From NCBI GenBank assembly GCA_043806315.1, contig JAZDHF010000266.1, forward strand, positions 7,560 to 71,559: DNA of 64,000 nucleotides, read 5' to 3'. The position numbers and the translations under genes were made by a program. Positions 4,530-9,282 of this stretch are shown here, one piece after another. Origin of the DNA: Planctomycetota bacterium. GTDB taxonomy: Bacteria > Planctomycetota > Phycisphaerae > UBA1845. The notes under the pieces are model-generated. The model saw only the letters and a list, made by a program, of their open reading frames with translations. It searched no databases and was not told the DNA's origin. The first letter of the stretch is position 1. Each line of letters opens with the position of its first letter.

Positions 4530-4723
4530 GTTGCCCTCCGTACTGCCAGCGTCCCATCACTCGCGCCCCTCACCGACGCCTCCAACAGACGCGACGCAGT
4601 TTTGAGTACCGGGCTATTTGTATTGCAGCCCATCCCAAGGAGCCTGCTCGCCAAGTACTGTAAATCCTTGGCTTCGTAATCCCGACTCAATCGGCGAATA
4701 GTCTCGGCTCGGCGGGTGGTCAT
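4526..4723 (-). CDS. hypothetical protein (65 aa)
   Basis: ORF chained to both neighbours by 4-nt overlaps. Confidence 0.55.
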   Translation of the reverse strand: MTTRRAETIRRLSRDYEAKDLQYLASRLLGMGCNTNSPVLKTASRLLEASVRGASDGTLAVRRAT

Positions 4724-4947
4724 GCCATCCTCCGCATGACCGATGATAATTTCGTCTTATCCTTTTTGGTCCAGCAAGGACACTGATCCCAAGTGTCCCA
4801 GACCCGCATAGGAGACGGCACATTGATCGGCAAGGGAGCCAGCCAACCTATAGGTGGCTTCCAGCCGCACGTCCCCATAGAGTACTTACCACTGGCCGAA
4901 AAGTCCCCGAGTTTACATGTCCCGCAGGTTGTTTTCGCCTTTGCCAT
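4720..4947 (-). CDS. hypothetical Cys-rich protein (75 aa)
   Basis: ORF with CGTC and CPC motifs. GGAGG lies 9 nt upstream of the ATG. Confidence 0.6.
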   Translation of the reverse strand: MAKAKTTCGTCKLGDFSASGKYSMGTCGWKPPIGWLAPLPINVPSPMRVWDTWDQCPCWTKKDKTKLSSVMRRMA

Positions 4948-4948
4948 C

Positions 4949-5053
4949 TCAGTCGGCCTCCAGAACTACGTGGTATATCGCCTTGTGTGTCCACATCGGA
5001 TCGAGTTTCCCCGCTACGCATTTTCTGAGTTGATCTGGAGTTTGTGCGCTCAC
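4949..5053 (-). CDS. possible micro-ORF (34 aa, GTG start)
   Basis: GTGA overlap with the upstream stop at 5050-5053. It ends 1 nt before the next ATG. Hand translation: VSAQTPDQLRKCVAGKLDPMWTHKAIYHVVLEAD. Confidence 0.3.
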   Translation of the reverse strand: MSAQTPDQLRKCVAGKLDPMWTHKAIYHVVLEAD

Positions 5054-5463
5054 GCAATTCTCCACAAGTTCCATACCCACAGAACCAGCCAGCAGATATA
5101 CTCCCGCCCCTGCCAGACGTTCAGCCAAAACAGGGCGCAGATCGCCGACCCGCAGATCCAGATTAGGAGTCGCTTCGTCCGTTGCTCCGCCAGAAGTTCT
5201 CCGATCAGGATGGCCTTCACGTCCTCAACCTGGTCGATCTCGGCCTTCAGGATAGCCTCGCGAGTGTCACGACGATTCATCTCGGCGCGCGCCTTGTCTT
5301 CCAGGTTCAGGAAGATTACGCTGATCGCGTCGAGCGGCGCATCGGGCGGGGGGTATGCGCGGCGGTGAAGGTCCTCGACCTCGCGGACGCCGGGGCCAGG
5401 CACGATCTGGATTTCGCCGAGCAATTGCTCGGCAGTCAACGATTCTGATTGTTGTTTGCTCAT
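5050..5463 (-). CDS. membrane-anchored protein (137 aa, C-terminal hydrophobic region)
   Basis: Start chosen at ATG 5463 (ATGA overlap with 5460..5669). The C-terminus LLIWICGSAICALFWLNVW...WLVLWVWNLW is strongly hydrophobic. Confidence 0.6.
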   Translation of the reverse strand: MSKQQSESLTAEQLLGEIQIVPGPGVREVEDLHRRAYPPPDAPLDAISVIFLNLEDKARAEMNRRDTREAILKAEIDQVEDVKAILIGELLAEQRTKRLLIWICGSAICALFWLNVWQGREYICWLVLWVWNLWRIA

Positions 5464-5669
5464 GCCCACCTCTTCACTTCTCTTACCGCCAGCGGGTACG
5501 CCCGCAGCCATCTCGTCGGGACTAGCGCCACTTCCCACCCCAGGCACAGCAGAAATGCCCTAACGTGCAATACGGCAAGCGCCAGGAGCACTAGCGGGCC
5601 GCGGTGAGAGCGGGAGTACTCCACGCCGAACACCAACGCTAGGGCGACGGCGGAAGCTTCGAGGATCAT
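5460..5669 (-). CDS. small membrane protein (69 aa, about 2 TM)
   Basis: Start at ATG 5669 (ATGA overlap with 5666..6157). Hydrophobic stretches are ILEASAVALALVFGV and LVLLALAVLHVRAFLLCLGW. Confidence 0.55.
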   Translation of the reverse strand: MILEASAVALALVFGVEYSRSHRGPLVLLALAVLHVRAFLLCLGWEVALVPTRWLRAYPLAVREVKRWA

Positions 5670-6157
5670 GCCAGCCTCCGCAAGTGCGAAGCGGAGCGGT
5701 TGCGATGGTAATAACGATTGGCGTTGACCGCATTGCAATCCTTGCAGCGACTTCCGGGAGTCCCCCCGTTGGACTTCGCAATCTCACTGAATGGCTTTGG
5801 CAAATTACATTGACAACACCGTTTCATCCTGACTGTAGCCAAGAACCTATTGATGACTCGGCTAGCATGATTCCCGTTGCATTTTCCAGTCGCCTGCCAT
5901 GCATAGAATATGGCTTGCTCTTCGGCTTGCTTGGCGGTGATCTCGGCTTCCAGGCACATTTTCCTCTGGGTTGCTTCTCGTTGCCTGCCCGTTATTCCGA
6001 ACCGCTTGGCAATCTGCCGCACCCATTCCCGCGAGACGCCGACTTCATCCGCAATGGCCTGGAAGCCGAGGGCCGGGTTATCGAGTAACCGCCGCACCAG
6101 CTCAGGATTGGCAATTGGAATCGGGCCTCTCACCGCCGCATCTTTCTTGTCAGCCAC
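5666..6157 (-). CDS. HTH DNA-binding protein with C-terminal Cys cluster (163 aa)
   Basis: HTH-like segment LGFQAIADEVGVSREWVRQIAKRFG, followed by a CCQC...CKDC zinc-ribbon-like cluster. Confidence 0.7.
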   Translation of the reverse strand: MADKKDAAVRGPIPIANPELVRRLLDNPALGFQAIADEVGVSREWVRQIAKRFGITGRQREATQRKMCLEAEITAKQAEEQAIFYAWQATGKCNGNHASRVINRFLATVRMKRCCQCNLPKPFSEIAKSNGGTPGSRCKDCNAVNANRYYHRNRSASHLRRLA

Positions 6158-6225
6158 GCCGACAGAATCACGCCGAACAGCGCGATGCCGAGCCAGAACA
6201 GCACCTCGATGGCGCGGGCCTTCAT
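6130..6225 (-). CDS. possible 31-aa single-TM peptide
   Basis: Hand-found. GAGGTGGAG SD precedes ATG 6225. Product is MKARAIEVLFWLGIALFGVILSAWLTRKMRR. It overlaps the next start by 28 nt. Confidence 0.35.
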   Translation of the reverse strand: MKARAIEVLFWLGIALFGVILSAWLTRKMRR

Positions 6226-6256
6226 CGTCTCCACCTCTTGCCGGGGCAGGTTTCTT

Positions 6257-6478
6257 TCACTTTGCCCCCATCTGCGCCGCGACCTGCGCGGCGATCTCGC
6301 GGATCAGATATGCAGTCCTACTTTGTCCGGTCCCGCGCAATGCGGCGGCCACCTTGAGCGCGCTCACCACCTCCCGGCATCGCGCCGGGCTTCGCTCTTG
6401 CTCTGCCAGCCGCGCGTTGACCCGCAGCGCCACTTCGGCGCGGAAGGCGGCAGTGTCGAGATCGCGGGTGGGCGTCAT
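6257..6478 (-). CDS. hypothetical protein (73 aa)
   Basis: Start at ATG 6478 (ATGA overlap with 6475..6765). This is the C-terminal part of track ORF 6257..6673. Confidence 0.55.
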   Translation of the reverse strand: MTPTRDLDTAAFRAEVALRVNARLAEQERSPARCREVVSALKVAAALRGTGQSRTAYLIREIAAQVAAQMGAK

Positions 6479-6765
6479 GCGGCCCTCCAAGATTTCCGCA
6501 TGATGTTCAACGCCATCCGCCGCCGGTTCTTGCGCGGTTCGCCACCGGCCACGTCGGCCCGGCTGACGTACCGGAACGCGGTTGCCAACGCCCGGTGTCG
6601 CTTCTGTTGGCGGCTGTCCAACGACGGCACAGGCACCGCAGCCGGCCGCTTCGGGTCCCGAATCGTCTGCCAAGCGGCTCGGAACATCTTCCGAATGCCG
6701 GAAGACCGGCGGGCAGCCAAACCCGCAATCCTCTCCTGGTGCCGGACTTGCGCGGGATCTCTCAT
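6475..6765 (-). CDS. hypothetical basic protein (96 aa)
   Basis: ORF with ATGA overlaps on both sides. Confidence 0.55.
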   Translation of the reverse strand: MRDPAQVRHQERIAGLAARRSSGIRKMFRAAWQTIRDPKRPAAVPVPSLDSRQQKRHRALATAFRYVSRADVAGGEPRKNRRRMALNIMRKSWRAA

Positions 6766-6944
6766 GCCGCCTCCGCGCCGGTCGTGAGTTTCTTCAGCCG
6801 CGCGAGTTCCCGCTCGATGGCGGCGGAGACGGCCTTATGCTTGCGCTCGCCCTTGGCGACCAAGCAAACGGTCACCGCCGATACTTCGCACATCCGCGCA
6901 ATCCGCGCTTGCGCGCCCCGTGGAAGTTTGATTCGTTTAGCCAT
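6762..6944 (-). CDS. Cro/Ner-like small HTH regulator (60 aa)
   Basis: MAKRIKLPRGAQARIARMCEVSAVTVCLV... has an HTH-like core. The ORF is open to 7103, but the extra 159 nt are AT-rich and contain a consensus-like promoter. Confidence 0.6.
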   Translation of the reverse strand: MAKRIKLPRGAQARIARMCEVSAVTVCLVAKGERKHKAVSAAIERELARLKKLTTGAEAA

Positions 6945-6951
6945 TGCTTCA

Positions 6952-6979
6952 ATCTTACGGAAGATTACGTAAATGTCAA
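6952..6979 (-). promoter_or_regulatory. sigma-70-like promoter TTGACA-16-TAAGAT, probably leaderless
   Basis: The -35 is at 6979-6974 and the -10 at 6957-6952, read on the minus strand. The ATG at 6944 lies 7 nt after the -10. The TTACGTAA palindrome (6965-6972) sits in the spacer. Confidence 0.45.
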
Positions 6980-7194
6980 TACCCTCATGAATATTTATTT
7001 TTGCTGGGTCAAAATCAGCGATTTCTGAAGGCTTCCAGGCATAGCGACGGCTTCCCTTGTCGTTTTTGCCTTCGCGGCCCTTCCGCAAGGTGTTGCCTTT
7101 CAACGTCAGTTCCGGTTCAGAGATCTTGGCGTAGACCGCTTGAGCTTAGTCTGTTAACGACGTGGACCGGGATGTAGCCGCCATACAGGTTCTA

Positions 7195-7359
7195 CTACCT
7201 GCCCAGCGCCCGGATTTCATCCTCGAAGTCTATCGCCATCGGTGCCTTTTTCCGTATCTCTTTGAAACAAGAGGCTGTTTTTTCATATTTCGGTTGCGAA
7301 GGAGCCTCAATAGCCAACCGTCCTGGACAGCCCAGGATAACCGGAACGTCAGCGAACAT
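7195..7359 (-). CDS. hypothetical small protein (54 aa)
   Basis: ATG at 7359 with GGAGG 7 nt upstream. This is the tail of track ORF 7195..7752. Local sequence is AT-richer. Confidence 0.4.
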   Translation of the reverse strand: MFADVPVILGCPGRLAIEAPSQPKYEKTASCFKEIRKKAPMAIDFEDEIRALGR

Positions 7360-7999
7360 TGGACTGCCTCCGTTTTTCATGATGGCCGTCCAACCAATAC
7401 ACATACCTAAACTTGGAAATTCTTGGGATTCGTGAAATCTCGATGCCGTCTGGGACGTGCGCCCGGCGCGAGTACCGCTTCCCCGCCGCGTCTTCGTAAT
7501 CGAACCGGGGCGTTTTCCGCTCTTGATCCGTATGCCCGTCGCTGATCCAGTTTCCGGCCCGGTAAATCGTACCCTGATGCCCCGCGGAGGGATCAGCGTA
7601 AGACACCAGACACCCAACATCGCGCCGGTTCTTCCGTAACCACTGAATCGCGCGGGACATAAACCACGTCTCTGCGTTCTTCGGGGTTCCGTCCTCAATG
7701 AATAGCCGCGCCAGTTCCCATGCCGCTGTTCCGTAACGCTTCGCGGTCTCACGCGGAGGTAGGGCGAACACGATACAGCCGATTACGGAGCACTTTTCGA
7801 TCAAGGCCAGCGTCAAGACGACAACTCCCGGCCAGTGGTGGAGGTAGTGCTTTCGAACGAGGTGGTCCACTGCGGGCCGCCCAACCTCCATCACCCTCCA
7901 ACCTGCGAATGGACGCAGTGCGAGCGTGGGAGTTGAAGCGTCGGTCTGTTTGGTGGATTCCGTACCACCCTCCCTCGAAGGGTCGCGGTGGGCTGGCAT
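7349..7999 (-). CDS. mom: Mom-family (GNAT-fold) DNA adenine modification protein-like
   Basis: 216-aa ORF. HYLHHWPG ... TPKNAETWFMSRAIQWLRK ... LVSYADPSAGHQGTIYRAGNW matches my recollection of the Mom-family signature (SYADP..GH.G.IY.A.NW). The start is uncertain (M1 at 7999 or M37). Confidence 0.6.
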   Translation of the reverse strand: MPAHRDPSREGGTESTKQTDASTPTLALRPFAGWRVMEVGRPAVDHLVRKHYLHHWPGVVVLTLALIEKCSVIGCIVFALPPRETAKRYGTAAWELARLFIEDGTPKNAETWFMSRAIQWLRKNRRDVGCLVSYADPSAGHQGTIYRAGNWISDGHTDQERKTPRFDYEDAAGKRYSRRAHVPDGIEISRIPRISKFRYVYWLDGHHEKRRQSNVR

Positions 8000-8064
8000 C
8001 GAGGGTACCAGCCCCAGAACCGCAATCCGTCAACCTCCGGATGCGCGCCGGAGGTCAATTCCAG

Positions 8065-8092
8065 AATAAAGGATACGCCGGGGAAAAGTCAA
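8065..8092 (-). promoter_or_regulatory. candidate promoter TTGACT-16-TTTATT upstream of the mom-like gene
   Basis: The -35 is at 8092-8087 and the -10 at 8070-8065 on the minus strand, about 60 nt upstream of ATG 7999. Confidence 0.35.
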
Positions 8093-8143
8093 GTGAAAAA
8101 TGGTGGCTCCGGTTGGGGGTCTACGGGCAGTTCGGGGGATGGT

Positions 8144-8192
8144 GAGCCGCGTTACCCCGGTTCCAACCGTGACCAGAGCCGCGTTACCCCGG
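8144..8192. repeat. two perfect 17-bp direct repeats GAGCCGCGTTACCCCGG (8144-8160, 8176-8192)
   Basis: Read directly. Period is 32 bp. They lie between the tRNA and the mom-like promoter. Confidence 0.8.
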
Positions 8193-8238
8193 CACGCGAT
8201 GGGATCCGAGTCGGGGACTGGCGGTTCTGTGCGAGGTA

Positions 8239-8312
8239 TCGGGGCGGCTCGATTCGAACGAGCAGCCTCCTGGTCCCAGGCCAGGCGCGCTACCGGGCTA
8301 CGCTACGCCCCG
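8239..8312 (-). tRNA. trnP: tRNA-Pro (anticodon UGG), 74 nt, no encoded CCA, C at position 33
   Basis: Cloverleaf built by hand. Acceptor stem CGGGGCG/CGCCCCG pairs 7/7. D arm is GCGT-AGCCCGGTA-GCGC. Anticodon arm is CCTGG-CCTGGGA-CCAGG. Variable loop is AGGCT. T arm is GCTCG-TTCGAAT-CGAGC. Discriminator is A. Confidence 0.85.
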
Positions 8313-8322
8313 ACAAGCGAAA

Positions 8323-8430
8323 GCGGTTCCTGGATACACCGGCCTGAGAACCCGTAACCAGGAACCGCCAGCGGATAGCGGAGCGCCGCGTCCGGCATTT
8401 GGACGCCTGGCCGTTTCCATGCGCTCCGCT
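8323..8430 (-). other. stacked inverted repeats (possible terminator or RNA processing structure)
   Basis: 11-bp stem GCGGTTCCTGG/CCAGGAACCGC (8323-8333 with 8358-8368). 10-bp stem AGCGGAGCGC/GCGCTCCGCT (8377-8386 with 8421-8430) encloses a 6-bp hairpin GCGTCC-ggcattt-GGACGC (8388-8406). On the minus strand the first hairpin is followed by TTTCGCTT. Confidence 0.5.
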
Positions 8431-8528
8431 GGTGCATTTCCATCTCCACTCTACGGGCGCCGACCGGGAAAGTCAAGCGTCACTCTCCTGTAATGGCGCA
8501 CTCGGCGAGCAGGGGGACGACTCCCTTT

Positions 8529-8870
8529 TCACCCCGGTATCCGTATAAACGAGACGATTCCCCCTACCGGCGTCGCCACACTGGACCCGATAACCAATCC
8601 AGTCCCGAGCGGCAATTTCTTGATGGCTCCAATAGGGCAGTAGGGAATCGCCACTCCGCCGTTCGCCGCGAAGGGCATGGGTCCACCGTAGACCTCTCCG
8701 AGGGTATCCTCTAAGGTGATTGAGTTCGCCGCAGTGCCTACCAGAATCCCGGAGACGAGCAGAATACACTTGCCCGCCACGCCCGCCACAACCGTCGTCG
8801 GGCCGAGCGCATTGATATTAACCGCCGCACTGTCCGAACCGGCGATTATCAGTGCATCATAGTTCCACAT
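8529..8870 (-). CDS. hypothetical small beta-rich protein (113 aa), last gene of the late operon
   Basis: ORF that overlaps the upstream gene end by 14 nt. Confidence 0.65.
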   Translation of the reverse strand: MWNYDALIIAGSDSAAVNINALGPTTVVAGVAGKCILLVSGILVGTAANSITLEDTLGEVYGGPMPFAANGGVAIPYCPIGAIKKLPLGTGLVIGSSVATPVGGIVSFIRIPG

Positions 8871-9282
8871 CCTGCACCCCCTCGACGATCTCGCCGTCGA
8901 TCTTGAGAGCCTCGTGAGGCGTGTCCCAGACCCGTTGCCAAGCCGGGGTGTAGGCGCGGCACCAACCGTGGTGCTCCCAAGGATGATTATGGTCGTTCCG
9001 TTTCACGATCTCATGGATGTTCGAATCGGGCGGGATATCCGGCGGAGGTTGCGGAGCGGCTGGCGGTCGGGAGGCGACCGGCGGCGGCTCCGACTGTTTC
9101 TCCGGGGCTGAGGGATGGCTTGCGGCGGGTTGCACCAAGCGGATAACCGTGGGTTCCGTCGCCTTTTCCGCAAGGCGTATCAGCAGGGCCGTATGAGTCG
9201 CAGTCGCTTTTCGTTGCGCGAGAAGGATGGCCGCCAGGGCAACCACGGCGACCACCTGAAGTACCAAAATCGCTTCTGTCAT
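8857..9282 (-). CDS. membrane-anchored protein (141 aa)
   Basis: ATG at 9282 (ATGA overlap with 9279..9473, GGGGG/TAGGA SD). It has an N-terminal TM helix (ILVLQVVAVVALAAILLA), a Pro-rich linker and a His/Trp-rich C-domain. Confidence 0.6.
   Translation of the reverse strand: MTEAILVLQVVAVVALAAILLAQRKATATHTALLIRLAEKATEPTVIRLVQPAASHPSAPEKQSEPPPVASRPPAAPQPPPDIPPDSNIHEIVKRNDHNHPWEHHGWCRAYTPAWQRVWDTPHEALKIDGEIVEGVQDVEL

Follow-up and report, generated by a model that had tools for sequence, protein, structure and literature searches.

In bacteriophage Mu, the com gene encodes a small zinc-finger protein and lies just upstream of mom, which it overlaps. Control of Mu mom is described in terms of the Com zinc finger, a Com-binding hairpin and a translation inhibition structure (PMC6483171). 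The reaction of Mom is now described as the transfer of glycine from Gly-tRNA-Gly to adenine N6, followed by rearrangement to N6-carbamoylmethyl-dA (PMC13219725). Within the Mu protein, residues H58, Y59, R111, S124, D149 and Y159 are reported to be important, the R151A substitution is inactive in vivo, an HTH-like insertion after the GNAT core (residues ~175–209) is needed for activity, and removal of 20 N-terminal residues lowers activity (PMC13219725). Metavirome mining has recovered >8000 Mom homologues (PMC13219725), and homologues are common in phages unrelated to Mu, with 231 phage records found here. Non-Mu members of the family, grouped in PHROG 1384, include proteins of Mycobacterium phage DillTech15 (gp95), Salmonella virus VSiP, Vibrio phage ICP1, and Listeria and Enterococcus phages. 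To our knowledge, nobody knows how phages other than Mu restrain Mom.

A Mom-family GNAT protein in an uncultured tailed phage

We analysed a 64,000 nt stretch of DNA, called the window below, whose source is an uncultured aquatic or groundwater tailed phage. The identical phage was recovered as DNA contigs in three sequencing runs, with no variants. The gene under study is the following.

7349–7999, minus strand: Mom-family GNAT gene (mom), 216 aa from the ATG at 7999

An initial annotation, made from the sequence alone, had recognized a Mom-family GNAT signature in this ORF, with exact coordinates, and had proposed HMM and structural comparison with Mu Mom; Pfam, PHROG, PDB profile and Foldseek searches all agreed with it. 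The 216 aa product, which contains LVSYADPSAGHQGTIYRAGNW, scored 101.1 bits on PF25680 of Pfam, whose cut-off is 27.1, with residues 42–213 aligning to profile positions 11–195 of 202, and matched PHROG 1384 with an E value of 1.1e-32. A profile built from close relatives had Mu Mom (8BV8) as its sole match in the PDB (E 7.7e-13). Foldseek placed chains B and A of 8BV8 first and second for the AF2 model of the protein (pLDDT 85.4), with E values of 2.7e-11 and 7.4e-10 and TM scores of 0.60–0.64, and the next GNATs followed at 4.5e-6 or weaker.

The alignment paired Mu residues H58, Y59, R111, S124, D149 and Y159 with H51, Y52, R98, T111, D136 and Y146. Five of these are invariant among relatives, and the sixth, T111, is S or T there; the hydroxyl of Mu S124 is kept here as threonine. 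Mu W48, W181 and R151 are not conserved, and the motif reads SYADPSAGH here rather than SFADERCGR as in Mu. S138 occupies the place of R151, a position that is S or A in all 15 aligned non-Mu members, with a near-invariant H three residues on; R151 is a Mu-specific feature and not one of the Mom family. We considered S138 as a sign of new chemistry and rejected it, as SYADP(S/A)xGH is the family norm, including at loci with an adjacent tRNA-Gly. A possible counterpart of the Mu insertion follows the GNAT core. These ~40 extra residues (about 157–195) are confidently modelled, mostly as strands, and their strongly conserved sequence, TDQERKTPRFDY, is unrelated to that of Mu. A further likeness to Mu (8BV8; Silva et al. 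2026, PMC13219725; Karambelkar et al. 2020, PMC7261163) is the position of the gene at the end of the late region, whereas the window phage has neither a com gene nor Mu-like transposition genes.

By family membership, fold and conserved catalytic residues, ORF 7349–7999 encodes a true Mom-family GNAT protein. Its identity to Mu Mom is only 23%. Within its family, which is large and already known, it is unexceptional. The argument of the initial annotation that a Mom unlinked to Mu-like genes would be novel does not hold in view of the 231 phage records and >8000 metavirome homologues. Nor does the Mu product which it gave, N6-methylcarbamoyl-adenine, now superseded by glycyl transfer and N6-carbamoylmethyl-dA (PMC13219725). 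Judged by homology, the enzyme would act as a transferase of GNAT fold, with charged tRNA as the source of an aminoacyl group (most likely glycine) that it puts on adenine N6 in double-stranded phage DNA, and the resulting N6-carbamoylmethyl-dA would confer resistance to restriction.

Like the non-Mu Moms of deposited phages, this is a stand-alone gene of a Mu-unrelated tailed phage with a SYADP-type motif, but identity to any deposited phage protein is at most about 38%. The closest relatives (55–76% identity) are all metagenomic, many of them encoded by contigs that fall into bins of Acidobacteriota and further soil phyla, and a scan of viral contigs with protein patterns yielded no close Mom. 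Most close relatives lie inside operons and have no leader of the kind described below, and three further ones (P0003, P0004 and P0011) lie at a contig end or in leaderless operons. Taken alone, ORF 7349–7999 is of routine interest, another divergent Mom, with which the family now reaches phages of soil and groundwater bacteria that have been little studied.

Promoter, leader RNA and start of mom

The region upstream of and overlapping the beginning of mom holds the following features.

8063–8092, minus strand: P2, sigma-70-type promoter-like site, TTGACT (8092–8087), 18 nt spacer, TATTCT (8068–8063)
8030–8058, minus strand: H0 hairpin, from the fold, core CCTCCGG (8054–8048) with CCGGAGG (8040–8034), loop CGCGCAT
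7984–8024, minus strand: H1 (start-codon hairpin), inner 9 bp of 8014–8006 with 7998–7990, loop CCCTCGA
7967–7983, minus strand: H2 hairpin, ACCCTTC with GGAGGGT, burying the Shine–Dalgarno-like GGGAGGG (7974–7968)
7952–7969, minus strand: H3 hairpin, GGTGG with CCACC

The P2 hexamers match the sigma-70 consensus at nine of 12 positions, and the region 6500–9000 contains four promoter-like sites, compared with 0.7 +/- 0.8 in shuffled sequences. The same hexamers, with TAATCT as a variant of the -10, recur at 17 nt spacing in three relatives (L012, L013/14 and L003/4), where the spacers have diverged, and homology between the window and these relatives starts exactly at the P2 -35. A promoter had been annotated at 8065–8092. 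The site and its TTGACT stand, but the -10 is better placed at 8068–8063, giving TATTCT after an 18 nt spacer rather than TTTATT (8070–8065) after 16, because the relatives keep TTGACT and TATTCT or TAATCT. The conserved hexamers support P2 as the predicted, dedicated sigma-70-type promoter of mom.

Downstream of P2 lies a leader of ~170 nt with hairpins H0 to H3. In L012 and L013 the H0 stem reads CCCCGG/CCGGGG, with both sides changed. The stem reported earlier within H1, GGGCTGG (8014–8008) with CCAGCCC (7996–7990), is present and extends to 9 bp, with a 6 bp outer helix (8024–8019 with 7989–7984), and in this fold the U and G of the AUG (ATG 7999–7997) are paired. The predicted free energy of H1 is -16.5 kcal/mol with a z score of only -2.0 against shuffles, which is weak by itself; H1 is validated because relatives conserve it with compensatory changes. 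All four lineages keep it paired, two pairs are changed on both sides, and one of them occurs as three pair types (UA, GC and CG). H2 and H3 overlap by 3 nt and are therefore alternatives, and H3 falls within a 36 nt block (7976–7941) that the window, L012 and L013/14 share without a single difference.

L012, L013/14 and L003/4 all retain the promoter hexamers together with H0, H1 and H2. Across the leader alignment, 96% of cells were paired and five pairs were changed on both sides; the covariation score exceeded all 500 shuffles and all slid controls, a result drawn from four independent leader sequences, hence with thin statistics. Rfam searches of the leader (201 nt and 1.7 kb; E up to 10) returned only noise (RAGATH-31 at 16.7 bits, where its gathering score is 71.8) and no T-box, riboswitch or known sRNA. 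A scan of IMG/VR for further leaders, using a 26-mer from the invariant block, an H0 pattern and an H1–H2 pattern, gave zero matches. A conserved reading frame in the leader was rejected on account of 1 nt indels among L012, L013 and the window that shift the frame. The same held for a 110 aa ORF of L012, and the products resemble out-of-frame GC-rich sequence.

The putative start of mom is ATG 7999. It has no Shine–Dalgarno sequence, and it is not conserved: relatives have CAC at this position, and mom of L003/4 starts 33 nt further downstream, with its ATG directly after H2. These observations raise the alternative that translation begins at ATG 7891 (180 aa) or GTG 7870 (173 aa), that 7892–7999 is untranslated leader and that the ATG in the hairpin is fortuitous. 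ATG 7891 is preceded at 3 nt by GGAGG, the strongest Shine–Dalgarno near any candidate start, the database's own gene call is the 173 aa form from GTG 7870, and residues 1–26 of the 216 aa form are predicted to be disordered. However, the first structured strand of the AF2 model (residues 34–38, pLDDT >90) would be cut off by a start at 7891, as would F-x-x-W-x-V, which is kept in frame among relatives. Mom of relatives starts 3–20 residues before the W or Y corresponding to W34, unlike a 7891 start, and ATG 7999 is the only ATG, GTG or TTG in frame upstream of W34. The 3 nt spacing at 7891 is short in comparison with the 4–8 nt at other genes of the phage, and Mu Mom loses activity on deletion of 20 N-terminal residues (PMC13219725). 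We consider a later start unlikely and take ATG 7999 as the probable start of mom.

The promoter-leader-mom unit among relatives and its proposed control

Comparison with the relatives delimited two further features.

7355–7913, minus strand: mom core segment, 559 bp, absent from L013/L014, where its flanks are contiguous
7033–7354, minus strand: apparently non-coding block that follows mom and is conserved in L013/14

By blastn, window 8093–7914 corresponds to L013 1399–1577 (83.5% identity) and window 7354–7033 to L013 1578–1901 (79.6%). A 54 aa ORF at 7195–7359 has a good Shine–Dalgarno sequence, but it is interrupted by TAG in L013. L012 also keeps the leader and is without mom, other sequence following in its place, and leader identity in mom-less L012 and L013/14 is 82–84%. 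In L003, the opening ~17 codons of mom are homologous to the part of the 'leader' retained in L013, and for this reason L013/14 resemble derivatives from which mom was deleted. What L003/4, an otherwise unrelated phage, has in common with the window is limited to a tRNA-Pro and the promoter-leader-mom unit; no other protein matches. Since so little else is shared, promoter, leader and mom appear to travel together. At three junctions found through homologues of the neighbouring HTH protein (L052–L054) there is no leader; L052 and L053 have the early operon and lack P2, leader and mom.

Our reading is that of a mobile cassette which occupies the late/early junction, in the order sigma-70-type promoter (8092–8063), structured leader and mom. 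The gene would be cargo in a variable junction between the late operon with tRNA-Pro and the leftward early operon, and the locus documents a junction where tRNA genes, promoter-leader unit and mom shuffle as separate blocks. The arrangement recalls the morons of lambda- and HK97-like phages in its own promoter, its position at a module junction, its clean presence or absence among relatives and its sharing with an unrelated phage, but differs in including a long structured leader and in having no obvious terminator after mom.

The location of the leader helices points to translational control in cis. H1 would bury the AUG used here and H2 the Shine–Dalgarno-like GGGAGGG, for which reason translation is most likely held low; the folded leader would keep synthesis of a potentially harmful enzyme low or conditional, with no need for Com. 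The reading that we favour, with somewhat more confidence than doubt, is a functional Mom in a promoter-leader-mom cassette whose leader hairpins throttle translation in cis, the upstream repeats lying outside the cassette. Mom modifies DNA and draws on charged tRNA, and a Com-free promoter and folded leader would be a candidate second solution to its control.

The analogy with Mu com-mom extends to hairpins upstream of and over the putative mom start signals and, by likely purpose, to restraint of a harmful enzyme. The differences are the missing Com, the dissimilar RNA sequence, the occurrence of the leader without mom and the non-conserved position of the start codon. As the initial annotation had already noted, no com-like gene is evident: tblastn with Mu Com against the window gave a best E value of 0.42, far from mom, and a scan of ORFs up to 150 aa found none with two CxxC motifs closer than 1 kb to mom. 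The ORF nearest to mom that carries a zinc ribbon (5666–6157) exceeds 150 aa and lies about 1.2 kb downstream. The comparison of H1 with a Com-type, mom-specific hairpin does not hold up, as H1 is a helix of a leader also present in mom-less L012 and L013/14, and the ATG within it is peculiar to this phage.

An unrelated trans factor could still act in place of Com, with a phage or host RNA-binding protein opening H1, or H1 and H2, for late translation of mom as in Mu. The layout is Mu-like, with a stable upstream hairpin beside a helix that buries ribosome-binding signals (compare the Mu model, PMC6483171), H2 and H3 overlap and could alternate, and the H1 stem sequence is conserved beyond the needs of pairing. 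Against this, there is neither a Com homologue nor an adjacent small zinc-finger ORF, and no single gene is found together with the leader in all of the window, L003/4, L012 and L013, leading us to regard such a switch as decidedly unlikely.

Persistence of the leader in mom-less phages suggests a different alternative, in which it belongs to the early region as a small non-coding RNA, a 5' stabilizer or an antitermination RNA of put/nut type that serves the leftward early transcript; mom would have landed downstream of it, and the hairpin would have no specific role for mom. The 82–84% identity and invariant 36 nt block in L012 and L013/14 are consistent with this idea, as is the position of the leader, which in window-type relatives is always upstream of an HTH-led early operon, and the 1 nt indels rule out a conserved reading frame running through it. 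However, the same promoter-leader unit precedes mom in the dissimilar L003/4, L013/14 have the look of phages that lost mom by deletion, the early operon of L052/L053 comes with no leader, and no Rfam family matches. An early-region element is a tentative explanation, on the improbable side, and we retain cis throttling of mom as the preferred one.

The tRNA-Pro and 17 bp repeats upstream of the cassette

Upstream of the cassette lie four additional features.

8448–8477, minus strand: P1, second promoter-like site, CTTGACTTTCCC ... TAGAGT, ahead of tRNA-Pro
8238–8313, minus strand: tRNA-Pro(UGG), C33, CCA not encoded, 239 nt upstream of the mom ATG
8176–8192, no strand assigned: 17 bp direct repeat copy 1, GAGCCGCGTTACCCCGG on the plus strand
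8144–8160, no strand assigned: 17 bp direct repeat copy 2, exact, 32 bp from copy 1

P1 and P2 have CTTGACTTT in common, and a P1-like site is also found in L052 and L012. The tRNA-Pro homologues of L003/4 and L052 have U33 and an encoded CCA.

The adjacency of a tRNA gene to an enzyme family that uses charged tRNA (PMC13219725) raises the question of a functional link, in which the C33 tRNA-Pro would be a private aminoacyl donor of Mom, the leader would sense tRNA through a T-box-like AGGGUGGUAC, or both. In both lineages with mom, the cassette has a tRNA-Pro ahead of it; C33, as in the tRNA-Pro of the window, is rare, and an extra odd tRNA-like gene with C33 adjoins the promoter in L003/4. 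At four distant Mom loci, a tRNA-Gly or an aberrant tRNA lies directly upstream of mom. The invariant leader block fits ten of the 14 positions of the T-box consensus AGGGUGGNACCGCG (RF00230; PMC11297988), including UGGU complementary to ACCA, and this 10 nt identity, AGGGUGGUAC, sits beside the helix that buries the Shine–Dalgarno-like sequence. On the other hand, the leader has no Stem I, specifier loop or antiterminator topology, no T-box model matched even at an E value of 10, and chance alone would produce such a 10-mer 0.58 times per window, so that for the window as a whole the motif is within chance. About 20 close Mom relatives have no tRNA within 3–6 kb, L052/L053 have tRNA-Pro and no mom, and the adjacent tRNA is Pro, not Gly. 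We find a functional tRNA link highly improbable. The same very low probability attaches to its most developed form, a mobile cassette with a new Com-independent, tRNA-sensing riboregulator whose UGGU could base-pair with the ACCA terminus of tRNAs that have A73, the adjacent tRNA-Pro with its decoding-impaired C33 among them. If true, the phage would couple production of an enzyme that consumes tRNA and modifies DNA to the supply of tRNA, or this Mom would use a non-glycine aminoacyl donor provided by the phage.

The twin exact 17 bp repeats had been described at the positions given above, and they are locally non-random: two exact 17-mers 32 bp apart have an estimated local chance of about 4e-4, and GAGCCGCGTTACCCCGG has only these two copies in the window, even at three mismatches. 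Their suggested role as regulator sites is less well supported. The repeats are absent from every other promoter and leader locus, a 17-mer scan of IMG/VR gave zero matches, and a 12 nt core of the repeat recurs beside tRNA-Pro in L052/L053, which lack promoter, leader and mom. Because they are absent at the other leader loci and their core lies near tRNA-Pro in mom-less relatives, the repeats are unlikely to be general mom regulators. RNA structure was rejected as an explanation, the folding of the repeat region giving a z score of -1.2. The repeats lie in the non-conserved spacer between tRNA-Pro and the cassette. They are probably sites for a DNA-binding protein tied to the tRNA or the late/early junction rather than a part of the mom cassette.

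Identity of the Mom protein

All features listed in the initial annotation were found where it placed them. The Mom-family motif is present in the 216 aa ORF at 7349-7999 (minus strand), and the assignment of this ORF to the family is secure. In HMM searches it scored 101 bits for Pfam PF25680 (Mom), where the cut-off is 27, and matched PHROG 1384 with an E value of 1e-32. A profile built from the ORF and 21 relatives had a single match among PDB sequences, the Mu Mom crystal structure 8BV8 (E 7.7e-13). The top two Foldseek matches of the AlphaFold2 model (pLDDT 85) were chains of 8BV8 (E 2.7e-11 and 7.4e-10), with ordinary GNAT acetyltransferases trailing by four to five orders of magnitude.

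Identity between Mu Mom and the window Mom is only 23%. The Mu residues marked as important by mutagenesis, H58, Y59, R111, S124, D149 and Y159 (PMC13219725), align to H51, Y52, R98, T111, D136 and Y146; five of the six are invariant among relatives, and the T111 position is occupied by S or T. Mu R151 differs, aligning to S138. We rejected S138 as evidence of new chemistry, because the motif SYADP(S/A)xGH is common to all 15 aligned non-Mu members, including loci in which a tRNA-Gly gene adjoins mom, which makes Mu the outlier. The earlier description of the Mu product as N6-methylcarbamoyl-adenine is out of date: Mom moves glycine from Gly-tRNA-Gly onto N6 of adenine in dsDNA, and the adduct then rearranges to N6-carbamoylmethyl-dA (PMC13219725).

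The window phage is a tailed phage, encoding a large terminase, major head protein, internal virion proteins and an endolysin, and no Mu-like genes were seen in the scanned parts of the window. The occurrence of Mom in such a phage had been considered noteworthy, a view refuted by its distribution. A tblastn search gave Mom-like genes in 231 deposited phage genomes, many of them with a Mom-like annotation already in place, and with hosts including Vibrio, Listeria, Paenibacillus, Enterococcus, Mycobacterium, Staphylococcus and Salmonella. Close relatives of the window Mom number hundreds in the protein database, and >8000 homologues were mined from viromes in a 2026 study (PMC13219725). The window Mom adds a member to a known family and does not represent a new system. 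Aquatic and groundwater metagenome runs contain the phage at 100% identity; in MAG collections, the contigs carrying the closest Mom relatives were binned with Acidobacteriota, Solirubrobacterales and comparable soil groups.

A conserved promoter and leader upstream of mom

The proposed mom promoter was recovered as a promoter-like site at 8092..8063, one of four such sites in the region around mom, compared with 0.7 +/- 0.8 in shuffles. Two related loci from a groundwater site, L012 and L013/L014, begin to match the window precisely at the -35 hexamer (8093), with 82-84% identity, and their upstream sequence is unrelated to the window. The L012 match ends at 7924, after which the leader is followed by unrelated sequence with no convincing ORF. 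The L013/L014 match ends at 7914 and continues without a break into window 7354-7033; the absent 559 bp (7913-7355) holds Mom residues 30-215. A third relative, L003/L004, encodes a Mom 73% identical to that of the window, in the order three canonical tRNA genes ending in tRNA-Pro(UGG), TTGACT-17-TAATCT, the same hairpins, then mom. No other L003 protein matched the window, indicating that tRNA-Pro plus promoter-leader-mom is a unit common to otherwise unrelated phages.

Two observations lead us to read promoter-leader-mom as one putative cassette and L013/L014 as its likely deletion derivatives: promoter and leader accompany mom in a genome unrelated to the window, and the stretch of 'leader' retained by L013 is homologous to the N-terminal codons of L003 mom. 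In most other close relatives, mom is embedded in a replication-type operon, overlaps the gene upstream of it and lacks a leader. What our analysis adds is this conserved, uncatalogued promoter-leader unit moving with mom, together with a mosaic late/early junction. The promoter-like sites at 8448-8477 (before the tRNA) and 8063-8092 (before mom) both contain CTTGACTTT, and similar sites at L052:3464-3495 and L012:156-190 suggest a common promoter type in this phage group.

The start-codon hairpin forms as the initial annotation described, with GGGCTGG (8014-8008) pairing with CCAGCCC (7996-7990). On folding, the stem grows to 9 bp, pairing the U and G of the AUG, and gains an outer 6-bp helix (dG -16.5 kcal/mol, with a z of only -2.0). 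RNAalifold applied to four distinct leaders gave four hairpins:

H0, 8058-8030, minus strand: leader hairpin
H1, 8024-7984, minus strand: the start-codon hairpin of the initial annotation
H2, 7983-7967, minus strand: hairpin with the Shine-Dalgarno-like GGGAGGG as its 3' arm
H3, 7969-7952, minus strand: hairpin overlapping H2 by 3 nt

In each of the four leaders H1 is paired along its whole length, with one position reading U:A, U:A, G:C and C:G, and another A:U versus G:C; H0 also contains pairs with both sides changed. Across the alignment 96% of cells pair, five pairs carry double changes, and the covariation score exceeded all 500 shuffles and every slid control. Coming from four sequences only, this covariation is suggestive, not conclusive, support for the predicted structure. 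A 36-nt block (7976-7941, minus strand) is identical in the window, L012 and L013/14, and its flanks diverge. A conserved reading frame through H1 was excluded by 1-nt indels between these leaders. An Rfam search of the leader returned no family for this RNA.

Translation start and control of mom

In the gene call of the source pipeline, mom starts at GTG 7870 and gives a 173-aa product; an internal ATG at 7891 has GGAGG 3 nt upstream. A start upstream of W34 is favoured by three observations. In the AlphaFold2 model, residues 1-26 are disordered, confidence is high from about residue 31, and the first strand spans residues 34-38; F-x-x-W-x-V is conserved in frame among relatives, whose proteins start 3-20 residues before the W/Y; and ATG 7999 is the sole in-frame ATG/GTG/TTG upstream of W34. 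Translation probably starts at ATG 7999, which has no Shine-Dalgarno sequence, as is the case for many genes of this phage. Only the window has ATG in the H1 loop, where the other leaders have CAC, and pairing is kept by a matching G-to-A change in the opposite arm. The L003/4 mom ATG lies directly after H2, in frame with window GGT codon 12.

The leader helices would cover both the AUG used in the window and the Shine-Dalgarno-like element. The simplest mechanism, we infer, is restraint in cis of initiation on mom, whose product modifies DNA and consumes charged tRNA. The leader could instead be an early-region RNA element in its own right, an alternative kept alive by its persistence, apparently under constraint, where mom is absent. 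The presence of the hairpin, as part of the conserved leader, in the mom-less L012 and L013/L014 also leaves the proposed analogy to Com control in Mu unsupported as stated. A Com-like activator acting on the leader is an unlikely alternative and has no candidate: as had been noted, no com-like gene is evident, with no homologue of Mu Com in the window and no zinc-finger ORF adjoining mom, nor is there any gene that co-occurs with the leader from one lineage to the next.

The mom stop codon is overlapped by a 54-aa ORF at 7195-7359 (minus strand), which has a GGAGG at good spacing. Its frame is broken by TAG in L013, yet conservation extends over its C-terminal part (APM..DFEDEIRA), where several changes are synonymous; it may be a very small peptide gene.

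tRNA genes and the late/early junction

A tRNA-Pro(UGG) gene that the initial annotation did not mention lies at 8238-8313, on the same strand as mom and 239 nt upstream of the ATG. Unlike its L003 and L052 homologues, which have U33 and CCA, this gene has C33, seen in contigs from two sequencing runs, and does not encode CCA. Because Mom uses charged tRNA, the neighbourhoods of Mom relatives were checked for tRNA genes, and none was found within 3-6 kb of ~20 close relatives. Four loci of a distant Mom clade (~30% identity; Chloroflexota and Proteobacteria MAG contigs) carry tRNA-Gly(CCC) or an aberrant tRNA (ARAGORN: 2-nt anticodon) directly upstream, <=150 nt from the mom start or overlapping it (L029:774-849, L030:2962-3038, L043:2863-2938, L046:2848-2923). 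Within the invariant leader block, AGGGUGGUAC matches positions 1-10 of the T-box consensus AGGGUGGNACCGCG (PMC11297988); chance alone would give this 10-mer 0.58 times per window, and a T-box model search of the leader gave no match. A functional tRNA link at the window mom locus is very improbable.

Between tRNA-Pro and the mom promoter, L003 and L004 share an odd tRNA-like gene of class II (L003:3416-3500). Its variable arm is long, its anticodon loop reads UCCGAAC (CGA with C33), and CCA is encoded. It was missed by ARAGORN and scored 30.8 bits, below gathering, against the Rfam tRNA-Sec model.

The twin 17-bp repeats were confirmed: GAGCCGCGTTACCCCGG occurs exactly twice, 32 bp apart, and allowing up to three mismatches gave no third copy in the window. 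They are real, and too close together for chance. They sit in the only non-conserved part of the module, a spacer of 145 nt that separates tRNA-Pro from the -35; RNA folding of this spacer gave no significant structure. The same spacer has a different sequence in L003/4, including the odd tRNA-like gene, and a terminator in L012 and L013. The earlier suggestion that the repeats could be regulator sites of mom was not supported as stated: neither the 54 fetched loci nor IMG/VR contain the 17-mer, and its 12-nt core CCGCGTTACCCC occurs once in L052/L053 (L052:3751-3762, L053:208-219), 33 nt after tRNA-Pro, with its orientation to the tRNA reversed compared with the window. L052/L053, a relative, has tRNA-Pro and the early operon and lacks both promoter-leader and mom; this recurrence argues for a putative protein-binding site of the tRNA/late-early junction, not of mom. 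The L052 early region (4618-7699) contains RtcB, a radical SAM gene and a transposase-like gene, all missing from the corresponding place in the window, a further sign of heavy mosaicism around the late/early junction.
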